A stretch of DNA of 64,000 nt from an uncultured Lachnospiraceae bacterium (GTDB lineage: Bacteria > Bacillota > Clostridia > Christensenellales > UBA1242): NCBI GenBank assembly GCA_964393975.1, contig CAYMVO010000003.1:11760-75759 (forward strand), read 5' to 3'. Made by a program: the position numbers and the translations under genes. Position 1 is the first letter of the stretch; each line of letters starts with the position of its first letter. Of the stretch, positions 17,617-63,227 are shown one piece after another. The notes under the pieces were generated by a model that worked only from the letters and a program-made list of their open reading frames with translations, was not told where the DNA came from and made no database searches.

Positions 17617-17692
17617 CGGGGTGTAGCGCAAGTGGTAGCGCATATGGTTTGGGACCATAGGGTTGGGAGTTCGAGTCTCTTCACCCCGACCA
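17617..17692 (+). tRNA. tRNA-Pro(TGG)
   Basis: Cloverleaf CGGGGTG/CACCCCG, anticodon loop TTTGGGA, encoded CCA. Confidence 0.96.
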
Positions 17693-17713
17693 ATAAAGAG
17701 GTGTTCTCTTTAA

Positions 17714-17790
17714 GGACCTTTAGCTCAGTTGGTTAGAGCAACTGGCTCATAACCAGTTTGTCCGGGGTTCGAGTCCCTGAAGGTCCACCA
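17714..17790 (+). tRNA. tRNA-CAT, most likely Ile2 (lysidine-modified)
   Basis: Anticodon loop CTCATAA; acceptor GGACCTT/AAGGTCC and D-arm resemble Bacillus tRNA-Ile2 rather than initiator tRNA; encoded CCA. Confidence 0.88.
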
Positions 17791-17797
17791 TTATTTT

Positions 17798-17874
17798 GGC
17801 CTAGTAGCTCAGTTGGTTAGAGCGCCAGCCTGTCACGCTGGAGGTCGAGGGTTCGAGCCCCTTCTGGGTCGCCA
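17798..17874 (+). tRNA. tRNA-Asp(GTC)
   Basis: Cloverleaf, anticodon loop CTGTCAC, encoded CCA. Confidence 0.96.
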
Positions 17875-17912
17875 ATAATTATGCTAGAAGAATTTTTATA
17901 AAGTTCTTTTAT

Positions 17913-17988
17913 GGCTCGATAGCTCAGTCGGTAGAGCAGGAGACTGAAAATCTCCGTGTCGGTGGTTCGATTCCGCCTCGAGCCACCA
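17913..17988 (+). tRNA. tRNA-Phe(GAA)
   Basis: Cloverleaf GGCTCGA/TCGAGCC, anticodon loop CTGAAAA, CCA. Confidence 0.96.
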
Positions 17989-18015
17989 ATCCTTTCTTTA
18001 AAGGGGTTTAAATAT

Positions 18016-18090
18016 GCTGGTGTGGCTCAATGGCAGAGCAGCTGACTTGTAATCAGCAGGTTGAAGGTTCAACTCCTTTCACCAGCTCCA
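18016..18090 (+). tRNA. tRNA-Thr(TGT)
   Basis: Cloverleaf GCTGGTG/CACCAGC, anticodon loop CTTGTAA, CCA. Confidence 0.96.
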
Positions 18091-18094
18091 TTAT

Positions 18095-18179
18095 GGAGAA
18101 GTACCAAAGCGGCCAACTGGAACAGACTGTAAATCTGTCGGTACTACCTTCGGTGGTTCGAATCCACCCTTCTCCACCA
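18095..18179 (+). tRNA. tRNA-Tyr(GTA)
   Basis: Cloverleaf with long variable arm, anticodon loop CTGTAAA, CCA. Confidence 0.96.
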
Positions 18180-36289: not shown

Positions 36290-39200
36290 ATGCGATTTCA
36301 AAGAATAATAAAAACTATTATCGGTATCATTATTATTATCGGTATATTAGTGGGAATGGGGTACGGCGTCAGCACGCTACTCAATAACGATAAATCGGCG
36401 TTTTATTTTGAGGTAAACCCTAATGGCGAAGTTATGGAAGAAGTCGTTGTAGATGATATTATTGTCGACAAGGGGACCAAGATTATTTTACCTACTCCAG
36501 AGAGAGTTGGATATACTTTTGATGGTTGGTATTTTGATAGAGATTACTCAGGCGGGTATTATAGAGGCGGAGAAGAGATTTCCTCAGATAGTAGCAAGAC
36601 GCAACTCTATGCAAAGTGGAGTGTAAAAAAGTTTACGGTCGTGATTTATAACGAGTTTAATGATAGCCAAACTAAGTACACTGAAAATGTTAGTTATCAA
36701 AAAAGCATTTACTTAGACCGCTACATATCTCAAAACGAAGAGCTAGGATATACTTATAGTTGGAAAGATGCAAGTGGTGTGATTATTAGTGAGGCGAATG
36801 TCGTTATTACGGGCGATTGTACATTTACCCGTGTGAGAGAAGTGAAAGTGTACAATCTTAGGTATATTTACGAAGCAGATAACGAAGACGTCGTCTTGGG
36901 CGAGGACAGGTTGTCGTTTGGTAAATCATTTGATTTTAGCAATATCGATATGCAAAGAGTGGGATATTCATTTAAGGATAAATGCACACTCAAAAATGGT
37001 ACCGAGATAGCTAGTGGTACTTTGCTAGATAAGAGCATTATTAAAGGTGTTTATAACGATACTATAGTATTGTATCCTGTGTATGAGATTATGAAGTTTA
37101 GTGTAAAATTTTACACTTATGATGACGCTCTTTTGAGTACATTGAGTTATGATTACAATTCGTTATTGGCGCAAGATGATTTAAGCCGTATTGAGTCAAA
37201 TGCGACTTTGACTCGTGACCATTATGTATTTAAAGGGTGGTCGTACAAAGGTCAATTATTAGAAGATATTAGCACTTTTAGGATACCGACGGAAGATGTC
37301 GATTTGGTAGCGACTTATGAAAAGGAAAAATACGAGATAAAGTATTTTATTAGTGTAGGTGAGACAAAATATTTTGATACTATTACAAAGGAGTATGGAG
37401 ATAGTCTAGTAGGTACTATTCCGACCGATGAACAAATTGCGACTTTGATAGGTGATGATAGCAAGGCGTATGAGTTTTATGGGCTAAAGTATAATAATGT
37501 GACCTACGATAAAGAGACTTTTGAGCAAACATTTACTTCGGCAAATAATATGGAAATAGAAGTCTTACTCAATCAGACAAAATTAATTATCAAATATTTT
37601 GCCGGCGATGGTGAGACGATTTACAAAAAGTCATTTTTGGATATAGACTCACAAATAATTCTTCCAGATACCCCTACTAGCGAGTATGCCCCTAAGACCT
37701 CTGATACGGACACCTCGTACGTGTTTGGTGGTTGGATACTCAAAGATGGAACGGCTTTTGATGAAAGCTTTGATTTGAGTACTATAAACGGCAGTTTAGA
37801 TGTATATAGCGAATGGTTTGAGTATAATCAAAATAAATGGAAAGCAGGTCTAAATAGCGATGGTGTTACCGCTTATGTAGTGGAGTATTTAGGTGATTAT
37901 AAGAATGTTTGCGTGCCTAGTCAAGTGTTATTAAATTTTAATCCTTACAAGGTAACGACGATTGGCGACGAAAGTATCAATGGTGCGGTAGGTAACATTG
38001 AAGGTAGAAAAATATTAATCAGATCTAATATAACAACTATTGCTTATCGTGCTTTCTTTAACATAGAAAATACGAGCATTATATTTGACGATGACGACTC
38101 AAATAATAGTCTCAGTATCGGCGAGATGGCGTTTGGTAGTTTGACCGAAGCTGGAACGCAAAAATCAATCAAATCTATCACATTACCTAAGAGGACTACT
38201 AGCGTAGATTCACTTGCGTTTGGTTCGGCGATTAGTCTTGAACGAGTTGATGTGGTGAGTGGGTGTGAAAATTACAAGTCGGTCGACGGTGTACTCTATG
38301 AGGTTAATGGAAAAGATGTGATTCTTCACACCTATCCTCACGCTAAAAGTGGGACAGAGTTTGTAGTACCTAGTGACGTCACTAAGATTGGCGATAATGG
38401 ATTTTATTATTATAATGGCACAAACGCTATAGAAAGTACTTTAGAGGTGGTAAAGACTAGCAAAACTACCGCACTCAAGACTATCGGTGAAAATTCGTTT
38501 AAAAACGCTACAAACCTCACTCGTGTAGACTTTTCTACCGCACCGATAGATACGATTGGGGCATCTGCTTTTGAGGGGTGTTTTAATGATTGCTCTTCGC
38601 ACGAATTATTGTTTAATCCTACCTGTAAAATACTAAGAGTCGGCGCAAGTGCATTTAAAAATTGTTATTTTGTCACTAAGATTAGTATCGATTTGTCTAA
38701 TCTACAAGAAATTGGCGAGAGCGCGTTTTATTTTCTTGCGGGGAAGGTCGCAGTCAATAACACTCTTGAATTAGTAGAGGAAGATCTAAGCGTCACACTA
38801 AAAGATTTGACTAATATTCCAAATTATGCTTTTTGTAATAGTCAGTTATTCCTTACCATAATTGACACTAAAGATGTGACTATAGGTGAGAGCGCGTTTG
38901 GTAAAAGTATTATCAAAAGTGCTGTGTTTAATGGCAAGCTCACTTTGGGCGATTATGCTTTTAGTGAGGCGAGGATTGATTATATTCAGTTTGACCACGT
39001 TGAAGACATAAAAATTAATATGTTTGAGTATACGAGTGTAACCTCTATAAAGGTTGACTATCTAAAGAATGTGGAATATGTAAACGGTAAGCTTAGTGTG
39101 TTTTATAATAATAAGTCTTTGAAGACGTTTGTTTTTGGAGAGAATTGTTCTGTAGATGCTTTGACTCCGCTTTTGTTTTCAGGATGTATAAGTCTTGAAA

Positions 39201-39940
39201 GTGTAACGCTACCTAAAGATATTGAAGTGATACCAGCTTACGTTTTTTATGGTTGTGAAAGTTTGATTATAGATATACCTGAGAGCGTGAAAGCTATCGA
39301 GGGAGGTGCGTTTTATGGTTGTAAAAAAATAGAACGTCTAGACCTTACTCTTACGAGTTTATCAAGTGATGCGTTTAATGAGACGGGTTTGAAATATGTT
39401 TACATCAAATTTGTCGGGGATAATTGTAGTATGTCAGGAGCGTTTGTCGGTTGTACTAGTCTTAAGACTATTATTTTGGATGGAAAGGTGCCAGTGTTTG
39501 AATGTAAAAGTAGCGTGAGTTTGTATCTATTTTATAAGATAACTCCTATGAAGATTTACATTCCTCAAGGCACAAAGGCGGAGTATTTGGCTATAGATAA
39601 ATGGGTAGAGTACGAGGAGTATTTGACCGAGGTGGATCTATCAAGTGGTATGGTAAAAGATAACGGCAAACTACTAAAAGTCATTTCAAACATAGACACT
39701 ATTACTGTACCAAATGATGTGACAGCGTTAAGTGATTATGCGTTTAGTGGGTTGAGTAATTTAAAGGTCTTAAATCTAAATACGACTAGCGTGCTAACTG
39801 CAAGCGATATAACATATTTATTTGACGATGTAAATACTGATACTCTAGTCATCAAGGTACCTAATGATTTACTAGACGCTTATAAATCATCGACCTTTTG
39901 GGCGTCTTATATAAATAACTTTGTAGGAGTAGATTTTTAG
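36290..39940 (+). CDS. Large surface protein: N-terminal anchor, InlB B (Listeria-Bacteroides) repeats, BspA-type leucine-rich repeats
   Basis: Repeated PTPERVGYTFDGWY...LYAKW-type units; many IG..AF..C..L LRR units in the C-terminal half. Confidence 0.88.
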   Translation: MRFQRIIKTIIGIIIIIGILVGMGYGVSTLLNNDKSAFYFEVNPNGEVMEEVVVDDIIVDKGTKIILPTPERVGYTFDGWYFDRDYSGGYYRGGEEISSDSSKTQLYAKWSVKKFTVVIYNEFNDSQTKYTENVSYQKSIYLDRYISQNEELGYTYSWKDASGVIISEANVVITGDCTFTRVREVKVYNLRYIYEADNEDVVLGEDRLSFGKSFDFSNIDMQRVGYSFKDKCTLKNGTEIASGTLLDKSIIKGVYNDTIVLYPVYEIMKFSVKFYTYDDALLSTLSYDYNSLLAQDDLSRIESNATLTRDHYVFKGWSYKGQLLEDISTFRIPTEDVDLVATYEKEKYEIKYFISVGETKYFDTITKEYGDSLVGTIPTDEQIATLIGDDSKAYEFYGLKYNNVTYDKETFEQTFTSANNMEIEVLLNQTKLIIKYFAGDGETIYKKSFLDIDSQIILPDTPTSEYAPKTSDTDTSYVFGGWILKDGTAFDESFDLSTINGSLDVYSEWFEYNQNKWKAGLNSDGVTAYVVEYLGDYKNVCVPSQVLLNFNPYKVTTIGDESINGAVGNIEGRKILIRSNITTIAYRAFFNIENTSIIFDDDDSNNSLSIGEMAFGSLTEAGTQKSIKSITLPKRTTSVDSLAFGSAISLERVDVVSGCENYKSVDGVLYEVNGKDVILHTYPHAKSGTEFVVPSDVTKIGDNGFYYYNGTNAIESTLEVVKTSKTTALKTIGENSFKNATNLTRVDFSTAPIDTIGASAFEGCFNDCSSHELLFNPTCKILRVGASAFKNCYFVTKISIDLSNLQEIGESAFYFLAGKVAVNNTLELVEEDLSVTLKDLTNIPNYAFCNSQLFLTIIDTKDVTIGESAFGKSIIKSAVFNGKLTLGDYAFSEARIDYIQFDHVEDIKINMFEYTSVTSIKVDYLKNVEYVNGKLSVFYNNKSLKTFVFGENCSVDALTPLLFSGCISLESVTLPKDIEVIPAYVFYGCESLIIDIPESVKAIEGGAFYGCKKIERLDLTLTSLSSDAFNETGLKYVYIKFVGDNCSMSGAFVGCTSLKTIILDGKVPVFECKSSVSLYLFYKITPMKIYIPQGTKAEYLAIDKWVEYEEYLTEVDLSSGMVKDNGKLLKVISNIDTITVPNDVTALSDYAFSGLSNLKVLNLNTTSVLTASDITYLFDDVNTDTLVIKVPNDLLDAYKSSTFWASYINNFVGVDF

Positions 39941-42599: not shown

Positions 42600-44003
42600 A
42601 TGAAAAAGAAATCTATTCTTATGGTAGCGTGTCTACTTGTGGTTAGTTTGGCTTTTGCGGGCTGTGGTTTTCAAAAGCTTTCAAAAATGCCTAGTTTGGA
42701 GGCGGAGGTCTTAGGTAATGGCGGTTTGTCCGTTACAAAAGGTGAATATGTATATTATGTTGATAGTTTTGTCGAGTCATCTAGTATTGCTAAGGATGGC
42801 AATACTTATAATAAGATAAAAAATGCTAGTATTTATCGTGCTAAAATGGTAGATAATAAGCTCGTCTATAACGAGGACGGCGTATTGCAAAATGTGGAGT
42901 TGGTCGTTCCTAAAATCGTAGGTTTTGAAAATACTAATTTGTTCATTTTTGATGATTATATTTACTATGGCACACCTAACACTCAATATGACAAATCTGG
43001 CACACTTCGTAATGATTTGATTGATTTTTGTCGTGCGAAATTAGACGGTAGCAATGTGCAAATCATCTATACGACTGATGAATATTCAGACAATGCGACA
43101 CATTCCTTTTACAAAGTAAATGACAAGGTATATTTGGTTGTCTTTGAGGGGAGTGACCTTGTAAAAGTGGAGATAGGTACACATATCAAAAAAGCGGTGG
43201 TACTAGCAGAAGATTTGAGTAGTGTTATGTTGCCTAGTGTGAATAATTACACTTACGCTCAAAGCGTTACCGCTAGCGGTACTTTGGGGTATGCCTATTA
43301 TACAAGAGATTTGACCGAAGATGACGGATTTTTGTCTACGAGTAGCAAAGGTAATGTGTTGGGTAGAGTGGATATCGTGACAGATGAAAAGACCGAGATA
43401 AAAGACGGTGAGACCACTCACGAGCTTTGTAGCGTTCAGTCAAACTATGTTTATGATTATAAGACTAAAAACGGCAACAAGTGCTTGTACGCTACTAGTG
43501 ATATGAAGTCATTTATACAGGTGACCACCACCGATGCTTATAGTGATGTTGTTGTGCTTACCAATGTAAACGGGGAAAATAGAGGTATCATCGCTACATT
43601 TGATGATAAGACTGTTTGGATAAAGGACGGCACAAATGTAAAAGAGTCTAGCGAATTAGTATTGGATAGCAGTATTACTGTAAAATATGTGGATAATGAC
43701 TATATATATTATTTGGACGGGACAAAGATTTATAGAGTTAGTCTAGCAGATTTTACAAAAGAATTAGTAGTCAGTGATAGCACTATGAATACTAGCTACT
43801 TTGATTTTACTGAGAGTGGATATGTATACTATTTTGCGACCTATACGGGTGATAAAGACGAGTCAGGCGTATATCTAAATAGGGTAAATTTGAGTCAAAA
43901 AGTTGAACCTGAAGAGGGCGAAGAAGAGACCGATTTGGGTTATGAGATAGAACTAGTTGGTGTTTTAGCTGAAAATCATACCACTACTGAGGATGAAGAA
44001 TAA
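42600..44003 (+). CDS. Lipoprotein, probable beta-propeller (DUF5050-like)
   Basis: Lipobox LAFAGC; repeated beta-rich YIYY units; promoter TTGACT-17-TATTAT at 42513-41. Confidence 0.75.
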   Translation: MKKKSILMVACLLVVSLAFAGCGFQKLSKMPSLEAEVLGNGGLSVTKGEYVYYVDSFVESSSIAKDGNTYNKIKNASIYRAKMVDNKLVYNEDGVLQNVELVVPKIVGFENTNLFIFDDYIYYGTPNTQYDKSGTLRNDLIDFCRAKLDGSNVQIIYTTDEYSDNATHSFYKVNDKVYLVVFEGSDLVKVEIGTHIKKAVVLAEDLSSVMLPSVNNYTYAQSVTASGTLGYAYYTRDLTEDDGFLSTSSKGNVLGRVDIVTDEKTEIKDGETTHELCSVQSNYVYDYKTKNGNKCLYATSDMKSFIQVTTTDAYSDVVVLTNVNGENRGIIATFDDKTVWIKDGTNVKESSELVLDSSITVKYVDNDYIYYLDGTKIYRVSLADFTKELVVSDSTMNTSYFDFTESGYVYYFATYTGDKDESGVYLNRVNLSQKVEPEEGEEETDLGYEIELVGVLAENHTTTEDEE

Positions 44004-44064
44004 CAATCGGTTTATCTAAAAAGAGTCTATAAGTGACTCTTTTTGCTTAATTTATCTCTAAATG

Positions 44065-44124
44065 GGCTCTATGTCAAATGTTGGTGTCAAATAAATAATA
44101 AATATTTTTGTTATTATTAGTTTG
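44065..44124 (+). repeat. ~60-bp dispersed repeat, copy 2 (GGCTCTATGTCAA...)
   Basis: Aligns with 18368-18428. Confidence 0.65.
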
Positions 44125-44391
44125 ATTTTTGTATCTAGTGATTTCAACTAGTTGGATACACTAGATTTTTCGTTTATTAATAATATTCTTTTTCTTAGGT
44201 TTTTAATGGTTCTGTGTCCATAACTTATTCGTTTTAGCACTTTTATTTTGTTATTCTTTCCTTCGGTGTATCCGTTATTATATGGGTACACTATTTGATT
44301 GTAAATAAAGTAAACCTAATTAACTTGTTTTTTGTGTTTTATATTGACTTTATAACTTTTTTTTGATATTATACAATAAAAGGATGTTAAA

Positions 44392-44708
44392 ATGGAATTA
44401 TTTAATAAAAAGCGGTTTATACATCAATATTTTTAGCACTAATTCTTTGTATTTCATTTGTATTAATCAATTTTATAAATACAAAAAATTATATACTTAC
44501 TAGAACTGTAGATGTTAGTGAGATAGGGGTGTTATCTTATGATGAAGAGGTTGATAAGTTACTAAATATATTTGATGATTATTCTTTAAGTAGTAATAAT
44601 TCAAATTTTAAATTTGAGGCTTATAAGGATATTTCAGATTATAATTTTTCGGGTATCCAATATTTATCCACATCTTCTGATACTACATGTGTTCTATGGA
44701 ACACCTAA
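44392..44708 (+). pseudogene. Frameshifted, truncated secreted protein (possible polymorphic-toxin N-terminus)
   Basis: Promoter TTGACT-17-TATTAT (44344-72); ATG frame stops after 14 codons; one extra A in the A5 tract (44407-11) gives MELFNKKAVYTSIFLALILCISFVLINF... open to 44708. Confidence 0.55.
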
Positions 44709-44724
44709 AAATTAGGAGTCGTTT

Positions 44725-45090
44725 ATGAAAATTAAAGATTGGGAAAAATATATTATAAAAAAATACGATGCAATAAAGATAAATGATTTTGTAGATTTGA
44801 AAAAATATTTAACTAACCAAGAAAACTATGCGCATAATTTTACTCCTGAGGAAATTACTGAAACTGTAATAATGAATGATGAGTACTACTCGGCATATGT
44901 TTTTGATGAATCTAAAATTGCACATAGACAAGTTCAATCTACGGATAACTCAGGATGGAGTACAACCGTTGTTTTTATAGCATCATATGATAAAGTCAAT
45001 ATATCAGATTATTATATTCACGGATCAAACGGCTTGACTAGACATGAGATGGATGAGTTTTGTCGTGATATCTACCCATTAGCAGATTGA
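44725..45090 (+). CDS. Hypothetical 121-aa protein (immunity-like)
   Basis: RBS AGGAG; AT-rich; directly follows the truncated secreted gene. Confidence 0.65.
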   Translation: MKIKDWEKYIIKKYDAIKINDFVDLKKYLTNQENYAHNFTPEEITETVIMNDEYYSAYVFDESKIAHRQVQSTDNSGWSTTVVFIASYDKVNISDYYIHGSNGLTRHEMDEFCRDIYPLAD

Positions 45091-45096
45091 GGATTT

Positions 45097-45801
45097 ATGT
45101 TTAATAAAGATTTTTTAAATATTACATTAGTGTTTTCTGGGATATTATTTATTTTTATTAGTTTTCTTTATGTAAATCATTTAAACATACATAGCACTCA
45201 GTTTATTTTTAATAATAATATTGAGAAGGTTGTTGAAATTAAAACTTCAAATGATGAAATTATTTAAAATTATGCTACTGGATTTTTTGTAAATAAAAAT
45301 GGCGTTATACTAACTAACAAACATGTTGTAAATAGTTCAGAAGACAATAATAATTTTAAAATAGTTAAAGTAAGATTATCAGACATGAATGAATGGCAAA
45401 ATGCTGAAATAATAAATGTTAGTAATAAAAGTGATTTGGCATTAGTAAAAATTGATAAAACAAACACAAAATATTTTGACTTTAGCAATAATGTTAAAAA
45501 TGGTGAAACTGTATATACATTAGGCAATCCAAATGGACTAGGATTATCTTTCAGTAGTGGCGTGGTTTCAAGTAATGAAAGAAACATATTATACAATGAT
45601 AAAACAATAACAACAATACAAACAAGTCTTGTTGTTAATGAGGGAAATAGTGGTGGACCTGTTTTTAACAGCTCCAGCAAACTTGTTGGAATAATTAGTT
45701 TTAGATTAAAAGATAAATATGATAATGTAATTCAAGGTGTTTCATTTATTTTGCCTGTTTCTACTATTCAAATGTTTATAATAGAGTCTACAGTTGAGTA
45801 A
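45097..45801 (+). pseudogene. Trypsin-like serine protease (no PDZ) with internal nonsense codon
   Basis: Signal/TM start at 45097; in-frame TAA at 45265-67; triad motifs TNKHV, DLA and GNSGGP all in the same frame. Confidence 0.82.
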
Positions 45802-45934
45802 TACTCATGATTGGACTCTTTTTTTGTGGTTTGGTGTATTTTTGAACATAATAGTCAAAAGTCAGACAAAATATTTGTTTGCTATATGCGTTTTATTTGG
45901 TGTAAGATATGGTATATAAGACTTAGGAGGATAT

Positions 45935-46723
45935 ATGGCGAGAAAAATTGTTATCACTTCGGGTAAAGGTGGTGTCGGAAAGACCACGACCGTTGCAAAC
46001 CTTGGGTGCTTCTTGGCTAAATTTAACTATCGTGTAGCACTTATGGATTTGGATATTGGGTTAAATAATCTTGATGTGGTTATGGGACTAGAAAACAAAA
46101 TTGTTTACGATATAGTAGACGTTATAAATAATAGATGTAGAGCAAGGCAAGCACTCATTCAAGACGCGACTTTGCCATCGCTCTACGTGATGCCGTCTAG
46201 TCATATAAACGTAAAAATCACAAAAGAACAACTAAAGTCCGTGGTGGACAATTTGGATCCATATTTTGATTTTATTTTGTTTGATTGTCCAGCGGGGATA
46301 GAGGAAGGGTTTCATAGGGCGGTGACCTTTAGTGATGAGGCAATAGTGGTAGTCACACCACATATTAGCAGTATAAGAGATGCGGATAAAGTGTTATCTA
46401 TCCTAAGTAGCTACGGACTAGCGGAGGTGAATGTGCTAGTCAATCGTGTGCGTGGTGATTTGATAGTAAATAAGGAGGTGCTGTCCGTGGAGGATATACG
46501 CTGTTTATTAAAAAATAAAGTCATTGGAGCAATACCTGAAGATGATAACATAGGGACTTTGGCTAGCTTTTCGGGTAATCTCACGGGTAAAGGCGATGCG
46601 ACTAGAGCGTTTTATTTGCTCGCGACAAATGTAATTGACGGCACACATAAAATATTTGATTGCACTATGAATTATCGTGGCATTATGGGAAGTATTAGAA
46701 GAAAATTGAAAAAGAAGGTGTAA
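45935..46723 (+). CDS. minD: Septum site-determining ATPase MinD
   Basis: TSGKGGVGKTT, DIGLNNLD, DCPAGIEEGF, SSIRDADK. Confidence 0.95.
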   Translation: MARKIVITSGKGGVGKTTTVANLGCFLAKFNYRVALMDLDIGLNNLDVVMGLENKIVYDIVDVINNRCRARQALIQDATLPSLYVMPSSHINVKITKEQLKSVVDNLDPYFDFILFDCPAGIEEGFHRAVTFSDEAIVVVTPHISSIRDADKVLSILSSYGLAEVNVLVNRVRGDLIVNKEVLSVEDIRCLLKNKVIGAIPEDDNIGTLASFSGNLTGKGDATRAFYLLATNVIDGTHKIFDCTMNYRGIMGSIRRKLKKKV

Positions 46724-54773: not shown

Positions 54774-55367
54774 ATGAAAGAGTATTTTAAAAATTTAAAG
54801 TTTACTTCGCTAGCGTTCGGGCTATTGTATTTACTTTTTGGTTTGTCTTTGCTAATTTGGCAAGACACCGCAAAAGCGACTATGCTCGTTTTGTTTGGCG
54901 TGGCAATAATCGTGTTTGGTGGCGTTAGCATATTAAACTATTTTATTTATCGGACGGAACCTTTTGGCTTGTTTATTGGTGTCATAAATATTGTCTTAGG
55001 TGCGCTAACTATTGTGTACGCTGGCGACTTGTCAAATGCGGGAATTTTTGCGGGCGTGTTTGCTTTTATATTTATGTTTAGTGCGGTTTTCAAATTTCAA
55101 AATGCACTTATACATAGACGTTTTGGTGTGAAAAATTGGTGGCTTGAGGCTATTTTTGGCACAATAATGCTAGTAGTTAGTATAGTGATTATATGTAGTC
55201 CGTTTGCGGAAAATGTTTTACTGACGCTCTTAGGACTGTGTATAATTATAGATGCCATTATGCAAATAATAACGACATTTATTGTCGCTAATAAATTAAA
55301 GAAAATCAAACATTCATTTAAAGAGTTTTTTACCGTCAAAGATGAAGATGATGTTATAGAACTTTGA
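54774..55367 (+). CDS. HdeD/DUF308 family membrane protein
   Basis: RBS AGGAGG; repeated short TM hairpins. Confidence 0.75.
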   Translation: MKEYFKNLKFTSLAFGLLYLLFGLSLLIWQDTAKATMLVLFGVAIIVFGGVSILNYFIYRTEPFGLFIGVINIVLGALTIVYAGDLSNAGIFAGVFAFIFMFSAVFKFQNALIHRRFGVKNWWLEAIFGTIMLVVSIVIICSPFAENVLLTLLGLCIIIDAIMQIITTFIVANKLKKIKHSFKEFFTVKDEDDVIEL

Positions 55368-55394
55368 TAATGTTTGATATAGAAAAAACTGCTA

Positions 55395-55498
55395 TCTAAG
55401 GGCTAGCACTTTTGAAACTAGCAGAATAAAAAGAAAGGAACAATGTAAAATAAATACAATGTTCCTTTTTGTATTAGTTTCAAAAGCAATTGACTAAG
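55395..55498 (+). repeat. ~105-bp palindromic element, copy L
   Basis: Inverted copy at 62831-62936 (central 36 nt are 34/36 identical); arms TTTGAAACTA/TAGTTTCAAA flank a terminator-like hairpin. Confidence 0.8.
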
Positions 55499-55583
55499 GT
55501 CAAAATATATGTCAAATCTTGGATTTCATAACATATTATCCAAATAAAATGATAATTATTTGTTTATCATTTTATTTATTCCC

Positions 55584-56003
55584 CTATGATTGACTTGTAT
55601 TGAAAATATATTTAGTATTGAATTCAAATTCAAATTTATTATCTGGAAATTGAAAATTATTTAGATTGTAAGAGATTTCTTGATATATATCATTTGTACC
55701 ATCTTCTGAAGCCTTAAAAATTGACCAAAATTTATAAAATTCTATTTGTCCACACGCATTAGATTTTATAAAGTCAATAAATTTTATAAATTTCTTTTTA
55801 TTTTCATCCTTGTAAAAATCTTCAAAATTTGTTATGTCGTAGCCAAGTTCATTTACAATAGGGTCAGAAATGTAATAAAATTTTTTATCAAATGTATAAT
55901 TTTTTATATACTTATTTAACGATTTAGTTTCTTCAAAACCTAAATTCAACTTTTTAATGTTTTTAATTTTAGTATCACTACCTATAACATAATATGCACT
56001 CAT
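55584..56003 (-). CDS. Hypothetical 139-aa protein, putative immunity protein
   Basis: AT-rich, aromatic/Lys-rich; RBS GAGG; 6 nt after the stop of a toxin-tip-like fragment. Confidence 0.65.
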   Translation of the reverse strand: MSAYYVIGSDTKIKNIKKLNLGFEETKSLNKYIKNYTFDKKFYYISDPIVNELGYDITNFEDFYKDENKKKFIKFIDFIKSNACGQIEFYKFWSIFKASEDGTNDIYQEISYNLNNFQFPDNKFEFEFNTKYIFNTSQS

Positions 56004-56718: not shown

Positions 56719-58809
56719 TTAATCTTCTTTTTTATATATTCTATAGATTGAGTATTTATATAGCGGGATATTGTCCATTATTTGATACAAATTTCTCTTA
56801 AAGTTTATATCGTCCACATTTACTTGTATATTGTGTTTTTTACTCTCAGCGTTTATATCTTTCGTTATATCGTCCAAACCTTTAAAGGTCGTCAAGGTCA
56901 ACAATTCTCTTGTCGTCGTGTTTAGCGTGCTTAGGTGGTTTGCGGTGATATAATTTTTCTTTTTCATAGGGATAAACCCTTTTATAAACCAAAACGCATT
57001 AGAGCGTAATTGTTCCTGATAGGCGAGCATATTACGAGTGGACAAAGTATCAGGGTATGGATAGGTGTAGACTTTTTCTCTTTTGTTGTATATGATTTCT
57101 TTCAAAGGATCGTATACTTTGTAAAATTCCTTATTGCTGACTTCTTCAGTACCTATTAAATCAAATCCACAAAGGTTGAGCTTTGTCCTAATATTTATAC
57201 TGCTAAATATATCAAAATCTTTCAAGTTTACATCTTGCGAGTTCCAAAGATTTAATTTCAATTTATCTAGTGCGCGTTGTTGTTGATTTATGCGAGATAT
57301 TTTGTTGATAGACTCTAATTGTTCCACAACTTCCGCATTTTTGAGTTCCTCTTGAAAGTTTCTTTCAATGGATAGTTTGTTTAATTTTTCGCAAATAATT
57401 GTGTCATAGTTCATTATATCGTATTCGCCGTAAGGTTCTACGCCCGCATCTAGTAAAACATTTTTATATATAGCGTTTGTTATCCTACAAAAATATTTAA
57501 TATTTAGCATATTGTATTGTTTGAAATATTGTTTTAGTCGTATCACTTCGTCAATATTATCTAGGTCGCTACCAAAGCTCACTATTACATAAGTAAGCGA
57601 GTCGTTTTTATCCTTTAACGAATTTACAAATTCATCCAAATCTACTTGAAATTCTTTTTTGTAAAAATCTTTCTTGTGATATGTTAGATTCATGGGTTTT
57701 GTAGGTAGGTCAAAATACTCAGTTTGGTTAAACTTGCCGTCACAAAATCTACCAAAGTTAGAGTTGTAGTTTTTATCCGCAAAATCGTTTTTATCAAATA
57801 TATGATAGTCTACTATCTTTGGCGTAGGTGTGCCGTTTATTAGTGTAGGAAATTGATTGTCCGCGATGAGATAGTTGAATAGGTTTTTATTAGGGTTGCC
57901 GTGTCCTATAAGTAAAACGCTTAATGAAGTATCACTACTTACGCTAGCGGTGGAGTAGTCTATTTGTGAATGAGATAAAAACCTTGTCATAGGGTAGTCG
58001 GTGATAAATTTTTGAGATATAAGGCTGTACTTATTGAAAAAACTAATATTTTCGTTGCCGTAATTAAACTTGAACGCCTCCTCATATTGATTGTCTATTG
58101 AGATATAAAGATTGAATAAATGATTGTCAATTTCTTTGTAAGAGTTTATAATCTTTAAAATATTTTCACTATTTGTGTCAAAACTTATAAATGTTACCCT
58201 TTTATTTTTAAATTGAGAAAATCCTTTTGCGTTGATTTTGTCAAATTTTAGGTTTAAAAACTTTTTAGACAAAAGTTCCTTTTTAAAGTCTTTTGCGACG
58301 TCACCTATCCAAAAAATCACATTTTTTGACGGGATAGTTTGAGCGAACTTTTTTGCGTCCTCATTGTATCCTAAAATGACAAAAATCTCTTTTTTACCAA
58401 ATAGTATACGTTTTGTTTTGAAAAAGTTGGAAAAATAACGACCTATTATACCTAGCAAAGCAAATAACAATGCAAATAGATTTAAGAAAAACGATATGTT
58501 AAACGCTACCTCAAATAAGACATTTTGTGATATGGCAGGTGAGAGGACGCCCAAATCTACCTTTAGCACGCAAGCACCTATTGCTTGTGATATGCAGTCG
58601 GATAAATTTAATATAAAATCATTCTTTGCGACCTCGCCGTATCCAAATATTGCTATTGCGTAGACGCAAAAGTTTACTATCAGCGTCGGGATAAAGTATT
58701 TTGCGTTTTTGATATCTACTATTTCTTTTTGCGTGAGTAACTTTATACCCATAAAAATTAGTACTAAAATCTCAAATATAATTAGACCTATTATAACTGT
58801 GTTTATCAT
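56719..58809 (-). CDS. Membrane protein: N-terminal channel-like TM region, two Rossmann/RCK-like domains, C-terminal RyR-like domain
   Basis: TM helices at aa ~1-130; VILGYNE and LLIGHG dinucleotide-binding strands; C-terminal LAYQEQLRSNAFWFIKGF.P...IMDNIP resembles RyR-domain LA..EH.RW.....GW. RBS GGAGG sets the start at 58809. Confidence 0.65.
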   Translation of the reverse strand: MINTVIIGLIIFEILVLIFMGIKLLTQKEIVDIKNAKYFIPTLIVNFCVYAIAIFGYGEVAKNDFILNLSDCISQAIGACVLKVDLGVLSPAISQNVLFEVAFNISFFLNLFALLFALLGIIGRYFSNFFKTKRILFGKKEIFVILGYNEDAKKFAQTIPSKNVIFWIGDVAKDFKKELLSKKFLNLKFDKINAKGFSQFKNKRVTFISFDTNSENILKIINSYKEIDNHLFNLYISIDNQYEEAFKFNYGNENISFFNKYSLISQKFITDYPMTRFLSHSQIDYSTASVSSDTSLSVLLIGHGNPNKNLFNYLIADNQFPTLINGTPTPKIVDYHIFDKNDFADKNYNSNFGRFCDGKFNQTEYFDLPTKPMNLTYHKKDFYKKEFQVDLDEFVNSLKDKNDSLTYVIVSFGSDLDNIDEVIRLKQYFKQYNMLNIKYFCRITNAIYKNVLLDAGVEPYGEYDIMNYDTIICEKLNKLSIERNFQEELKNAEVVEQLESINKISRINQQQRALDKLKLNLWNSQDVNLKDFDIFSSINIRTKLNLCGFDLIGTEEVSNKEFYKVYDPLKEIIYNKREKVYTYPYPDTLSTRNMLAYQEQLRSNAFWFIKGFIPMKKKNYITANHLSTLNTTTRELLTLTTFKGLDDITKDINAESKKHNIQVNVDDINFKRNLYQIMDNIPLYKYSIYRIYKKED

Positions 58810-58827
58810 ACAAACCTCCATTCAAAG

Positions 58828-58920
58828 AGTATAATACACTATTTGTCTTTTGTCAATTTGTTTGTTGGTCCAAATTATTTAATTCAAATGGTTGACAAAT
58901 TGCGCTTTCGCTAGTATAAT
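58828..58920. promoter_or_regulatory. Back-to-back SigA promoters
   Basis: Minus strand TTGACA-17-TATACT (58856 to 58828); plus strand TTGACA-17-TATAAT (58892-58920). Confidence 0.75.
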
Positions 58921-58948
58921 ATCTACAATTATGTGTTGGAGTAAGAGT

Positions 58949-59920
58949 ATGGAAAAGTTAAAGGCAAATAGTTTACCGAGCGTCTATGTCTTTGATATTG
59001 AGGGGACTTTGCTAGATGGTTACGGCAAGATTAGAGCTGGCGCAAAGGAAATGTTTACCGCGATCAAGACAAAGACCGATAGAAAGGTGTTGTTTGAGTC
59101 GGGTATGAATGAGAAAGAAGTCCTTTCTATTATCGATAAGATCAATGCGGAGTTGGATGAAGATTGCAAGTTGACTCCTTGCGTTGCTAGTTGTTGCGGT
59201 AGTCGTATCATTAATGAAAAGGGCGAGCCTATTTTTTGCGATATTATTAGTTTTGAGGATATCCAGACTATAAACCGTATCTTGCTAAAGTATAGTCCTT
59301 CCACGGCGATTGTTTATAGGACAAAGACGGAAAACGTGATTTGCAAGATTGAGGAGTTGTATACGGGGTTTGGTAAAAAGCTCACTACTGAGGAGCAAGA
59401 CAAACTGGATAACATTTATCAGATTTTGTACACGACTCATAATGTACCGTTGCTTTGTAGAGAGGTGGGGCATAAGGAGTTAGAGCAAATGCTCAATAAT
59501 GGCGAGGTGTTTTCGTTAGAGATTGCTGGTGTTGACCTCAATAACGATCCCGCTTTAAATGCAAAAGTCGCTAAAGAAATCGCAAAAGCGACTGGTCTAA
59601 AGTATAGTCTCAGTGTCACTATGCAACTCGCTAGACAAGATAAATATACTGCGCTAGTTAATTTTATAGGCGTCAAAGAGGCGAGAAACGCTTGCTATAT
59701 GGGTGACGGCGCAAATGATATTCCGTGTCTAAAAAGATGTGGACATAGCGTGTCCGCTTTTGCAAAATTAAAAGATGTGGTAAGGGCGAGCAAGTTTGCG
59801 GTAAATACCACACTAGTAGAGGTGATACCTTATATAATAGGCGAACCTTATGATGCAAAGCGTCTGAAAGGACTTAGCAATATGTGTCTAAAACAAGCAT
59901 TAGCGAGAAGGAAAAAATGA
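58949..59920 (+). CDS. Cof-type HAD hydrolase (divergent)
   Basis: Motif I FDIEGTLLD, cap domain, DK, motif IV MGDGANDIPCL. Confidence 0.8.
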   Translation: MEKLKANSLPSVYVFDIEGTLLDGYGKIRAGAKEMFTAIKTKTDRKVLFESGMNEKEVLSIIDKINAELDEDCKLTPCVASCCGSRIINEKGEPIFCDIISFEDIQTINRILLKYSPSTAIVYRTKTENVICKIEELYTGFGKKLTTEEQDKLDNIYQILYTTHNVPLLCREVGHKELEQMLNNGEVFSLEIAGVDLNNDPALNAKVAKEIAKATGLKYSLSVTMQLARQDKYTALVNFIGVKEARNACYMGDGANDIPCLKRCGHSVSAFAKLKDVVRASKFAVNTTLVEVIPYIIGEPYDAKRLKGLSNMCLKQALARRKK

Positions 59921-59965: not shown

Positions 59966-60053
59966 GGAGAGGTGTCTGAGTGGTCTAAAGTGCTGTCTTG
60001 GAAAGGCAGTGTTGGGAAATCAACCGCAGGTTCAAATCCTGTCCTCTCTGCCA
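59966..60053 (+). tRNA. tRNA-Ser(GGA)
   Basis: Cloverleaf with long variable arm, anticodon loop TTGGAAA, CCA end. Confidence 0.95.
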
Positions 60054-60204
60054 AGTTATTCGCGCGTAAATCTTATATACTAAGGTTTGCGTTGTTTTTT
60101 ATTTAAAAAGCAAAAAGTCTTAAAGATATTAGAAACTATGTGTCGTAAATTTTAAATCAAATTTAAAATTTTTATTGCTATCGCAATTACACAATAAATT
60201 GTGT

Positions 60205-60558: not shown

Positions 60559-60587
60559 TTGACAAAAAAAAATAAATTTGATATCAT
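60559..60587 (+). promoter_or_regulatory. Strong SigA promoter of peptide/rSAM operon
   Basis: TTGACA, 17 nt, extended -10 TGaTATCAT. Confidence 0.78.
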
Positions 60588-60627
60588 AATACTAAGTTTA
60601 TATGCTTAAATTATAGGGAGGGTAAAG

Positions 60628-60789
60628 ATGTTTTATCTAAATGAAACTTTGAAAGAAAAAATTTATTCAAAAATTAACAACAAATTTGAATTTTGCGACA
60701 TTACTGAAAAATCTTATACAGAAAACTGTTCGTGTAAGGGTGGTTGTGGTACTTATACACCGCCATGTTCATGCTGTGCTTATAATTAA
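60628..60789 (+). CDS. 53-aa Cys-rich RiPP precursor candidate (not in ORF track): MFYLNETLKEKIYSKINNKFEFCDITEKSYTENCSCKGGCGTYTPPCSCCAYN
   Basis: RBS AGGGAGG, upstream promoter, leader plus Cys/Gly-rich core (7 Cys), 60 nt before the radical SAM gene. Confidence 0.85.
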   Translation: MFYLNETLKEKIYSKINNKFEFCDITEKSYTENCSCKGGCGTYTPPCSCCAYN

Positions 60790-60849
60790 TACTGAAGATT
60801 GAAATAATACGGGCAAAACCTTGTTCCGTTATTTTTTAAGGAGAAAATT

Positions 60850-61971
60850 ATGCCAAATAAATTAAATGGAAATAACAATATGAGATATGTAACATTTATA
60901 GTTACTCAAAATTGCAATTTGAATTGTACATATTGTTATGAACATAATAAAACTAAAAGTTCATTTGATGTTGAACTTGTAAAACAAATAATTTTAAAAG
61001 AGTTAAGCGCAAAAGATAGATATACTGAAATATGCTTTGATTTTTTTGGTGGAGAGCCTTTTTTGGAATTTCAGAAAATTAAGGAAATAGTTGAGTATTT
61101 TAAGGGGAAAAAGTTTGATAAAAAAGTTTATTTTTTTGCTGGTACTAATGGAACTTTAATTACTAAAGAAATACAGGATTGGTTATTGGAAAATAGAGAT
61201 ATCTTTCAAATAGCATTAAGTTTGGATGGAACTAAAGAAATGCATGATTTAAATAGAAGCAATTCTTATGATTTAATTCCTATACATTTTTTTGCAAATA
61301 AATTTCAATATTTAAGTGTAAAAGCAACTATTTCTCCGAAAACGATATATTCCCTAGCGGACGGGGTTATAAATTTACACAATTTAGGTTTTAAAAATAT
61401 TTCTTGCAATTTAGCAGTAGGGGTTGATTGGTCATCTGAGGAATATACTAAAATTTTAAATAGAGAGTTATACAAGTTGATAGAATATTATTTAGAAAAC
61501 CCAACATTAAAACCTTGTAATTTATTAGAATATCAAATTGAAAATGCTGTGCATCCAAACAACGGTAAAGCAATAAAGTTTTGTGGAGCTGGTACTCGTA
61601 CTAAAGTTTATGATATAGATGGAAAAGTATATCCTTGTCAGTATTTTTTACCGTTAACAATAGGTGATAAAGCTAAAGAGCCTATTAACATCAAATTTTC
61701 AGATGTTATGAATATAGAAGAAATGGATCCAATTTGTCAAAAATGTATAGCAGTTAATATTTGTCCTTCTTGTTATGGCTCAAATTATCAAGAAACAGGA
61801 GATATACATAAAAAAGACAAAGACTTTTGTAGATTACAAAAAGTAATAATTTTGGCTAATACATACTTTAAAGCAAAATTATGGGAGATGGGGAGGCTTA
61901 ATTTAGACGAATATGCCGAGCAAGAATTGCTAAATAGTATTATAAAAATTCAAAATGAAATAAAGATTTAA
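60850..61971 (+). CDS. Radical SAM/SPASM peptide maturase
   Basis: CNLNCTYC, FFGGEP, SLDG; SPASM cysteines CGAG...GKVYPCQ...CQKCIAVNICPSC...FC; no N-terminal RRE extension visible. Confidence 0.92.
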   Translation: MPNKLNGNNNMRYVTFIVTQNCNLNCTYCYEHNKTKSSFDVELVKQIILKELSAKDRYTEICFDFFGGEPFLEFQKIKEIVEYFKGKKFDKKVYFFAGTNGTLITKEIQDWLLENRDIFQIALSLDGTKEMHDLNRSNSYDLIPIHFFANKFQYLSVKATISPKTIYSLADGVINLHNLGFKNISCNLAVGVDWSSEEYTKILNRELYKLIEYYLENPTLKPCNLLEYQIENAVHPNNGKAIKFCGAGTRTKVYDIDGKVYPCQYFLPLTIGDKAKEPINIKFSDVMNIEEMDPICQKCIAVNICPSCYGSNYQETGDIHKKDKDFCRLQKVIILANTYFKAKLWEMGRLNLDEYAEQELLNSIIKIQNEIKI

Positions 61972-61981
61972 TGAGGGGAAA

Positions 61982-62785
61982 ATGAAAGTAATTAGTGTTG
62001 GTAAAGATAATGCAATATTTCAACAAATTTATGCATTAAAAGAAAATCGTAATAAAAGAGCTCAAACAAAAATGTTTTTTGTTGAGGGCATACAAAACAT
62101 TAAAGATGCTATGACTTTCGGTTGGCAAATTGAGGCTTTTATTTATTCAAAGAACACAAATTTGTCTAATTGGGCAAAAAGCGTGTTAAATAAAGCTAGT
62201 TATAATTATATTTTATCACCTGATTTAATGAATAAATTGAGCGATAAAGATGAGGTAAGTGAAATTTTGGCAATTATAAAAATGAGAGATTTACAACAAC
62301 CTAAATATTCAAAAAATCCTATAATAGTTTTAGTCGATAGACCTTCTAAAAAAGGGAATTTAGGTACAATTATTAGAAGTTGTGACGCATTAAACGTTGA
62401 ACAAATATATTTTTCTGGGCATAGTGTAGATATATATGACCACACAGTTATAACTGCATCAATGGGCTCATTTTTTAAAGTGCCAATTACTTTTATTCCT
62501 AGCAACAACGATTTTTTAAAATTAGTAAATGATTTAAAGTCAAAATTTAGTGATTTAAAAGTTGTTGCGACATCGCTTCAAACTAATAATAGACTACAAG
62601 ATTACGATTTTACAAGACCAGTTTTGTTGCTAATAGGAAATGAAACTGAGGGGCTTTGCAAGTTTTACAATGACAATGCCGATGATTTTGTAAAGATTTC
62701 AATGAGACCAAATATTGACTCTTTAAATATAGCTTGTGCAACAACTGCTTGCTTGTATGAAATAAACAGACAAAGGAATTTTTAA
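61982..62785 (+). CDS. SpoU/TrmH family RNA 2'-O-methyltransferase
   Basis: FFVEG, GNLGTIIRS, ASMGS, LLIGNETEGL, IDSLNIA; 10 nt after the rSAM stop. Confidence 0.92.
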   Translation: MKVISVGKDNAIFQQIYALKENRNKRAQTKMFFVEGIQNIKDAMTFGWQIEAFIYSKNTNLSNWAKSVLNKASYNYILSPDLMNKLSDKDEVSEILAIIKMRDLQQPKYSKNPIIVLVDRPSKKGNLGTIIRSCDALNVEQIYFSGHSVDIYDHTVITASMGSFFKVPITFIPSNNDFLKLVNDLKSKFSDLKVVATSLQTNNRLQDYDFTRPVLLLIGNETEGLCKFYNDNADDFVKISMRPNIDSLNIACATTACLYEINRQRNF

Positions 62786-62936: not shown

Positions 62937-63227
62937 CCACTTTTTTTATTTTGCCTAGTATCTTTAATAATAAGTAGAACTCTATCTTTATCACTTTTAT
63001 TTATTTTAAATACTCGTAAAAGAAACAAAGGTTTTGATATGTTTAAAAATACAGATTTATAAAAAAATAGTCAACTTTTTACGGTTGACTACTTTTTGTT
63101 TGATTATTTAGTTAAAAGTAAAGATAAAGTGTAGTTTGTTGTAAATTGATTTTAGTGTAGACAATGAGGTATGTCTATTTTTTTACTAGTCATTTACTAT
63201 GCAAATTTTTAAAATTACCTTTAGACA

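Follow-up and report, generated by a model that had tools for sequence, protein, structure and literature searches.

A 64,000-nucleotide (nt) stretch of DNA from an uncultured Lachnospiraceae bacterium, referred to below as the window, carries a compact cassette of three genes encoding a Cys-rich peptide of 53 amino acids (aa), a radical S-adenosylmethionine (SAM) enzyme with a SPASM domain, and a SpoU/TrmH-type RNA 2'-O-methyltransferase (hereafter SpoU). The first two are very probably the precursor and the maturase of a peptide made on ribosomes and modified after translation (a RiPP), as had been proposed in an earlier reading of the same DNA (the original prediction), and they prove to be conserved together across loci. 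That prediction ended the feature at position 61971, which is too short: the conserved unit takes in the next gene, that of SpoU (61982-62785), and probably also the terminator-like hairpin beyond it. We consider a functional coupling of SpoU to the peptide-enzyme pair likely. Judged from the sequences, the fuller proposal that the cassette is a horizontally acquired operon, in which a cross-linked, translation-inhibiting peptide antibiotic would be paired with an immunity gene acting by ribosomal RNA (rRNA) methylation, stands about evenly balanced. The features of the cassette are the following.

60559-60587 (+): sigma-70-type promoter, TTGACA and TATCAT at a spacing of 17 nt, with an extended -10 TG (11 of 12 consensus positions)
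60615-60621 (+): ribosome-binding site AGGGAGG of the peptide gene, 6 nt before the ATG (direct sequence reading)
60628-60789 (+): candidate precursor peptide, 53 aa, MFYLNETLKEKIYSKINNKFEFCDITEKSYTENCSCKGGCGTYTPPCSCCAYN (open reading frame and homologue alignment); its residues 1-33 are a variable leader with the start MFxLxxxLxxKI, and residues 34-53 a near-invariant core, CSCKGGCGTYTPPCSCCAYN
60850-61971 (+): candidate radical SAM/SPASM peptide maturase, 373 aa, 60 nt after the peptide stop (Pfam Radical_SAM and Fer4_12)
61982-62785 (+): SpoU/TrmH-type RNA 2'-O-methyltransferase, 267 aa, with an L30e-like N-terminal RNA-binding domain (Pfam)
63068-63091 (+): terminator-like hairpin with a T-run, likely the end of the three-gene operon (consensus scan only)

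A constrained peptide core and its radical SAM partner

The peptide is under selection, and the open reading frame (ORF) is therefore a real gene and not a chance one. When seven loci were compared codon by codon, pairwise differences amounted to 167 synonymous and 34 non-synonymous in the core, as against 101 synonymous and 366 non-synonymous in the leader: purifying selection acts strongly on the core, whereas the leader evolves freely. All members of the family have the core pattern C-x-C-x-G-x-C-G-T-Y-x3-C-x2-C-x-Y, which includes five invariant cysteines (C34, C36, C40, C47 and C50; C49 is replaceable by Ser or Gly), an invariant GTY and, at the C-terminus, a conserved A/S-Y. The leader drifts except at its start, MFx[LI]xxxLxxK[IV]. 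A word-indexed search returned 17 homologous peptides of 52-54 aa, and about 20 metagenomic homologues were found overall. An exhaustive search of 1.84 billion cluster representatives with a hidden Markov model (HMM) yielded seven peptide clusters of the window type, an eighth match that was weak and partial (to a 1165-aa protein), and otherwise nothing convincing. As small ORFs are under-called, these counts are minimum figures. The peptide family is real but rare. No Pfam or NCBIfam model matches the window peptide, and the HMM libraries assign it to no described precursor family, in keeping with the earlier view that its Cys spacing lies outside the recognized families.

The expression signals that had been read by eye, namely the AGGGAGG before a 53-aa ORF and a near-consensus promoter with a TG, were recovered as listed above. 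The promoter is the top-ranking plus-strand site of the region and its TTGACA box keeps its position in five of six homologous loci; promoter-like sites in the AT-rich stretch as a whole show no excess over chance (19 observed against a shuffled expectation of 19.7). We also considered an attenuator or terminator between the peptide and radical SAM genes and rejected it, the hairpin at 60799-60839 (-8.8 kcal/mol, z-score -0.84) being no better than shuffled sequence.

The enzyme, predicted to lie 60 nt downstream with a CxxxCxxC motif and a full set of SPASM cysteines, answers to that description in all respects. Its motif C22-x3-C26-x2-C29 and the seven SPASM cysteines (C245, C263, C296, C299, C305, C308 and C327) are invariant in 26 homologues, the seven-Cys region being the one for two auxiliary [4Fe-4S] clusters that marks SPASM proteins, and the Pfam scores are 46.5 bits for PF04055 and 47 bits for PF13353. 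Against the HMM libraries the protein falls below the cut-off of every named family. The best NCBIfam scores are those of PapB (NF047865, 171.9 against a cut-off of 340) and of the CXXX-repeat maturase (TIGR04115, 146.2 against 350), followed by nif11-type, CcpM, SCIFF and QhpD maturases, all far below their cut-offs (for the SCIFF maturase TIGR03974, 107.5 against 425). The SAM-cluster motif starts at residue 22, which leaves no room at the N-terminus for a RiPP recognition element (RRE), the domain that the original prediction had also failed to see. In an AlphaFold2 model (pLDDT 86) a strand at residues 11-19 runs straight into the TIM-barrel core, and the closest structural match to this model is CteB (Foldseek E 3e-19, TM-score 0.69), followed by anSME, TigE and ChlB. 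A conserved pair of C-terminal helices (residues 324-370) follows the SPASM domain; that these helices bind the leader is speculation.

Gene neighborhoods were drawn from species-representative genomes, JGI/ENA metagenomes and exact-match look-ups. The peptide and radical SAM genes are adjacent in every locus of the window type, and their flanks are unrelated: a HAD hydrolase and tRNA-Ser in the window, UvrD in locus L087, and SepF, signal peptidase II and a pseudouridine synthase in L090. A neighborhood search had been suggested as a check on the pair, and it found the conserved Cys core beside homologues of the enzyme.

Homologues of the radical SAM enzyme form more than 780 clusters, nearly all unnamed and metagenomic. 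Those at least 54% identical to the window enzyme always adjoin a peptide of the "CGTY" type, and most of those at 40-49% identity adjoin CXXX-repeat peptides (for example ...CKGSCKGGCTRSCKGNSR). The sister CXXX-repeat peptides pass the NCBIfam model TIGR04114 (27.8 bits in L093 and 24.1 in L121, at a cut-off of 20 bits) and have the MFxL leader start in common with the window peptide; the same model gives no match to the peptides of the window and of L091. The enzymes associated with the sister peptides reach only about 150 bits on TIGR04115, and an annotated TIGR04115 member from an Anaerococcus prevotii plasmid is 33% identical to the window enzyme. QhpD-associated loci and SCIFF peptides turned up among the distant relatives. 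Species-representative genomes held no close relative of the enzyme (best, 44% identity), the best match among plasmid sequences was 39% identical (Phocaeicola), and viral contigs yielded none, on which ground a phage origin was rejected. We likewise rejected an anti-phage defense system: PADLOC returned no match for the peptide or for SpoU and, for the radical SAM core, only a weak likeness to pVips (49 bits).

By sequence, then, the whole clade is a sister group, as yet without a name, to the PapB and CXXX-repeat families, with the window in a divergent sub-clade that has a new core. The suggestion that the product type may be new is upheld insofar as no named family takes in the pair, and qualified insofar as the pair is not isolated and forms a sub-clade of a family of more than 780 clusters. 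The locus defines an unnamed sub-family of RRE-less SPASM maturases together with a new and extremely constrained core motif, and the common leader makes it a handle on the large, uncharacterized CXXX-repeat sister family.

Two features of the sister loci deserve mention in their own right. In 14 CXXX-repeat loci a small ORF of 51-60 aa resembling a zinc ribbon (C..CG ... CP[KR]RP ... H.W) lies directly downstream of the maturase (L093, 6129-6284; also L106-L116, L143, L154 and L108), and it appears from its sequence to be an unannotated, conserved third partner of that system. In one CXXX-type lineage a GNAT gene (Acetyltransf_3, RimJ/RimL-like) lies directly 3' of the maturase (L094, 6127-6642; L095, 4711-5226), and this gene may have a further role in immunity or tailoring.

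Linkage to an AviRb-like methyltransferase and its retention

The SpoU gene starts 10 nt after the radical SAM stop codon and has a ribosome-binding site of its own, GAGGGG. Its product scores 65.4, 40.6 and 111.2 bits on PF22655, PF22435 and PF00588. Among PDB entries the best match is 1x7o, or AviRb (166.7 bits, 38% identity over residues 8-265), the next reaching 91.5 bits, and the protein can be described from its sequence as AviRb-like, with the COG0566C architecture of an L30e-like domain followed by a SpoU catalytic domain. AviRb is the 23S Um2479 resistance methyltransferase of the avilamycin producer and the type member of COG0566C (PMC1829167; PMC12772374). The window protein stays below the cut-offs of the NshR/TsnR model NF000477 (42.9 bits against 425), of RlmB (TIGR00186, 108 bits against 160.15) and of TrmH, and it scores 24-26 bits against the thiopeptide-resistance structures 3nk6 and 3gyq. 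Its best matches on plasmids are TrmH-family genes of Streptomyces (36-37% identity).

SpoU adjoins the pair in 12 of 12 loci whose radical SAM enzyme is at least 54% identical to that of the window, versus none of 46 sister loci, counting non-redundant loci with enough flank (Fisher p-value 1e-12, which takes loci as independent and overstates their independence, the 12 linked loci amounting to few independent lineages). Nine further pairings of SpoU with the pair are indicated by contigs of matching length that turned up in the searches with the peptide, radical SAM and SpoU proteins. The genes occur in two orders, peptide-radical SAM-SpoU (for example in the window and L186) and SpoU-peptide-radical SAM (L091 and L098); the order changes within the clade at 55-56% identity, to which L091, L098 and L186 belong. 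In this clade the cassette adjoins Mob_Pre and a resolvase (L091) or TraG, the coupling protein of a type IV secretion system (L186). The clade at about 80% identity is found in varied chromosomal contexts with no mobility genes visible. In the window the radical SAM and SpoU genes have the two lowest GC contents of 42 genes (26.7% and 28.6%; mean 37.0, standard deviation 3.5), and in L090 and L091, too, SpoU has a lower GC content than the DNA around it. The mobilizable element in L091 (833-3519) also carries genes for a metallo-beta-lactamase-fold protein, a class I methyltransferase, DUF3788 and DUF3795 between Mob_Pre and the resolvase.

Several loci have lost the producing functions and kept the methyltransferase. 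In L177, whose genomic context is that of L096, a deletion beginning immediately past the -35 box and ending near codon 104 of the radical SAM gene has taken out the peptide gene and the SAM-cluster motif and left a 268-aa SpoU intact; the stand-alone state of this SpoU is therefore derived, by deletion of the producer genes. L182 has a frameshift in an A-run of the radical SAM gene beside an intact SpoU, and L183-185, from three samples, have another radical SAM frameshift in common with both the peptide and SpoU intact. A frameshift within the peptide core itself is found in P0286, a locus known from the peptide alone. Broken producer genes with SpoU kept are the pattern typically expected of an antibiotic-immunity pair in a community. 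The loci thus give a natural series of genotypes in gut metagenomes, with the producer lost and the immunity kept, that is useful for bacteriocin ecology.

Proposed mechanism, known systems and alternatives

In the mechanism that we propose, the RRE-less radical SAM/SPASM enzyme would bind the 53-aa precursor by the N-terminal leader (MFxLxxxLxxKI) and would cross-link the core with the help of the SAM-derived 5'-deoxyadenosyl radical and of its two auxiliary Fe-S clusters. By analogy with characterized relatives we lean toward thioether formation as the chemistry: given that the enzyme is homologous to PapB, CteB and QhpD-type enzymes, the likeliest product would have thioethers from C34, C36, C40, C47 and C50 to carbons of neighboring residues, such as the invariant T42, Y43 or Y52. 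Such a product would count as a ranthipeptide if the Cys sulfur is joined to a non-alpha carbon of the acceptor, and as a sactipeptide if it is joined to an alpha carbon. The leader would be removed and the product released by functions outside the cassette. The AviRb-like SpoU would 2'-O-methylate a nucleotide of the cell's own rRNA, probably 23S, and so shield the producer; if it protects the producer's ribosomes in this way, the mature peptide would inhibit translation. In its most specific form, with the cross-linked peptide inhibiting the bacterial ribosome and the producer shielded by AviRb-like 2'-O-methylation of 23S rRNA, the proposal is tentative and would have to be called somewhat unlikely. 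The original prediction had thought the product possibly intracellular; the linked AviRb-like SpoU argues instead for an antibiotic with self-immunity.

Thiopeptide producers provide the precedent for this logic, since their TsnR/NshR enzymes are SPOUT 2'-O-methyltransferases that give immunity to a Cys/Ser/Thr-rich RiPP binding the 50S subunit. The window SpoU falls outside that family, and thiopeptide loci differ further in that the window has no YcaO, dehydratase or pyridine synthase and its chemistry would be radical SAM-based. AviRb is matched over the full length of the window SpoU, has the same L30e-like plus SpoU architecture and is likewise encoded inside a biosynthetic locus. Unlike the window protein, however, it guards an actinomycete against an oligosaccharide (an orthosomycin), whereas the partner here is a peptide and the genome a low-GC, Firmicute-like one; window-type SpoU homologues, moreover, also occur without biosynthetic genes.

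On the side of the maturase, PapB, which acts on PapA to make the ranthipeptide freyrasin (NF047865), is the best-scoring named family and has in common with the window a radical SAM enzyme, two auxiliary clusters and a Cys-rich ribosomal peptide. PapB forms thioethers from Cys sulfur to carbon (PMC12373016), and its N-terminal RRE occupies residues 1-86 (PMC12715619). The window enzyme, in contrast, reaches half of the cut-off of 340 and lacks this RRE, and these two papers on PapB report no methyltransferase partner (PMC12373016, PMC12715619), unlike the window cassette. PapA has six Cys-x3-Asp motifs, whereas the window core has none and no internal Asp/Glu, and only some homologues end in Asp. 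The CXXX-repeat system (TIGR04115, with TIGR04114 and TIGR04117 peptides) resembles the window in enzyme length, RRE-less architecture and the MFxL leader start, but the window peptide has no CXXX repeat and SpoU is linked to the window sub-clade alone; we found no experimental characterization of this system or of TIGR04115 in the searchable literature. CteB, the SCIFF maturase of thermocellin (PDB 5why and 5wgg), is closest by structure and sequence, a thioether-forming SPASM enzyme with two auxiliary clusters. Its identity is nevertheless 22-24%, its N-terminal ~90 residues fall outside the alignment with the window enzyme, and SCIFF peptides (GGCGECQTSCQSACKTSC) are unrelated to the window core.

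Our search of the literature for radical SAM RiPPs with rRNA-methyltransferase resistance returned nothing relevant. If true, the proposal would amount to a new structural class of ribosome-targeting RiPP from uncultured gut Clostridia and, to our knowledge, to the first thioether-type radical SAM RiPP with immunity by target modification. New ribosome-hitting antibiotic scaffolds are rare and valuable. Should the immunity reading hold, the nucleotide modified by SpoU would mark the binding site of the peptide, which would speed work on its mode of action.

Several observations weigh against this proposal. Beside the few lineages behind the linkage, SpoU orthologues at 65% (L178) and 58% (L180) identity are solitary, free of any remnant of the pair, and lie among ribosomal-protein, pseudouridine-synthase and LepA genes that give them a housekeeping look; in GC content they differ little from their surroundings, and in a neighbor-joining tree they nest between cassette-linked clades. 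Such nesting would be expected if the producer genes were lost repeatedly, and equally if the methyltransferase is lineage-wide and often accompanied by the pair. AviRb-like genes also occur in plasmid and chromid records of Streptomyces, and membership of COG0566C is therefore no proof of a resistance role; AviRb has, in addition, a reciprocal-best-hit counterpart in S. albidoflavus J1074 (PMC12772374), and an identity of 38% to AviRb fixes neither the target nucleotide nor a resistance role. The loci have no conserved exporter, leader peptidase or regulator; that no exporter or leader peptidase was visible had been noted from the window alone, and because the flanking genes vary from locus to locus, none is conserved. 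Finally, a core without Cys-x3-Asp/Glu acceptors makes the cross-link pattern unpredictable from sequence. At L178 (5001-6579) and L179 (158-1736) we also noticed tandem SpoU-family genes, in which the stand-alone orthologue (65%) is accompanied by a 249-aa paralogue (27%).

SpoU could accordingly be a lineage-wide RNA methyltransferase with which the pair merely co-travels, and this is the alternative that survives best, although we hold it to be unlikely. The RiPP pair would be genuine and SpoU an ordinary RNA 2'-O-methyltransferase of the lineage, a stable neighbor or passenger; the role of the peptide, as a signal, a metal binder or a membrane-active bacteriocin, would be unrelated to the ribosome. 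Besides the stand-alone orthologues, it draws on COG0566C members of uncharacterized function such as RrmA (PMC1829167), and on the clustering of SpoU at 55% identity or more into at least 120 clusters, compared with about 30 for the radical SAM enzyme. Against this alternative, the linkage outlasts a change of gene order and a move onto mobilizable or conjugative elements, SpoU in the window, L090 and L091 has the low, foreign GC of the islet, it is absent from all of the sister loci, and in L177 its solitary state came about by deletion.

The immunity reading must also be set against an addiction, or toxin-antidote, module of mobile elements, which we think improbable. The peptide would hit the ribosomes of its own cell from within, SpoU would be the antidote, and export would be needless, which suits the lack of a conserved exporter or peptidase in any locus. 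An AT-rich cassette adjoining a tRNA gene, and the location of the 55-56% clade on mobilizable or conjugative elements with a resolvase, Mob_Pre or TraG, point the same way. The ~80% clade nonetheless sits in chromosomal contexts without visible mobility genes, and loss of a toxin with retention of the antidote (L177, L182, L183) fits a secreted antibiotic equally well. Known addiction modules, furthermore, need an unstable antidote, and a methyl mark on rRNA is not unstable.

Nor do we see much probability in an intracellular Cys-rich peptide that binds metal or serves in redox, or in a cofactor precursor like those of pyrroloquinoline quinone (PQQ) and mycofactocin, matured by the radical SAM enzyme. 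The core does recall the CxC/CC of metallothioneins, its A/S-Y end is conserved and its GTY invariant, and SPASM enzymes also make cofactors, with QhpD-associated loci among the distant relatives here. A partner dehydrogenase or cofactor-using enzyme is, however, not conserved nearby, the patchy, mobile and often decayed distribution is typical of bacteriocins and not of cofactors, and the linked RNA methyltransferase would be left unexplained. Least probable by far is a SpoU that methylates the peptide itself, for which there speak the adjacency and probable co-transcription (a 10-nt gap) and the precedent of one SPOUT enzyme reported to have a protein substrate (PMC9508554), and against which stand the L30e-like RNA-binding domain (PF22655, PF22435), the full-length homology to an rRNA methyltransferase, and the occurrence of SpoU alone or intact where the peptide and radical SAM genes are deleted or broken.

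Surroundings of the cassette in the window

The window is chromosomal. Its genes include those for SMC, MutS, a class A penicillin-binding protein, RNase J, UvrC and a BspA-type leucine-rich-repeat surface protein, and its GC content is 35.5% overall. To the left of the cassette lie two further features.

59966-60053 (+): tRNA-Ser, anticodon GGA, at the left edge of the AT-rich islet (ARAGORN; Rfam tRNA, 49.3 bits)
60064-60092: terminator-like hairpin 3' of tRNA-Ser (hairpin scan)

The AT-rich islet adjoining this tRNA gene is as originally described, with 13 of 60 positions G or C at 60901-60960. We found no att-like direct repeat of the tRNA-Ser 3' end downstream, no convincing terminal inverted repeats around the cassette and no integrase in the window, and as to regulatory RNA, Rfam yields tRNA alone. 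Two other stretches of low GC (25-28% against the 35.5% average) hold short ORFs only, at 44001-46000 and 55001-56000, and may be other acquired islets.

Upstream of the tRNA gene, an ORF for a HAD-IIB (Cof-type) hydrolase (58892-59920, +) reads 342 aa from a TTG; on the identical contig the gene is called at 323 aa, which makes a downstream ATG the probable true start. On the opposite strand a 700-aa ORF (56719-58821, -) with a hydrophobic N-terminus matches nothing in Pfam, NCBIfam or PADLOC and is present in L081 too. Six tRNA genes (Pro, Met, Asp, Phe, Thr and Tyr) are clustered at 17617-18179 (+). The surface protein, of 1216 aa (36290-39940, +), combines BspA-type leucine-rich and Listeria-Bacteroides repeats, and the cassette of L087 is flanked by similar LRR_5 and DUF285 giants.

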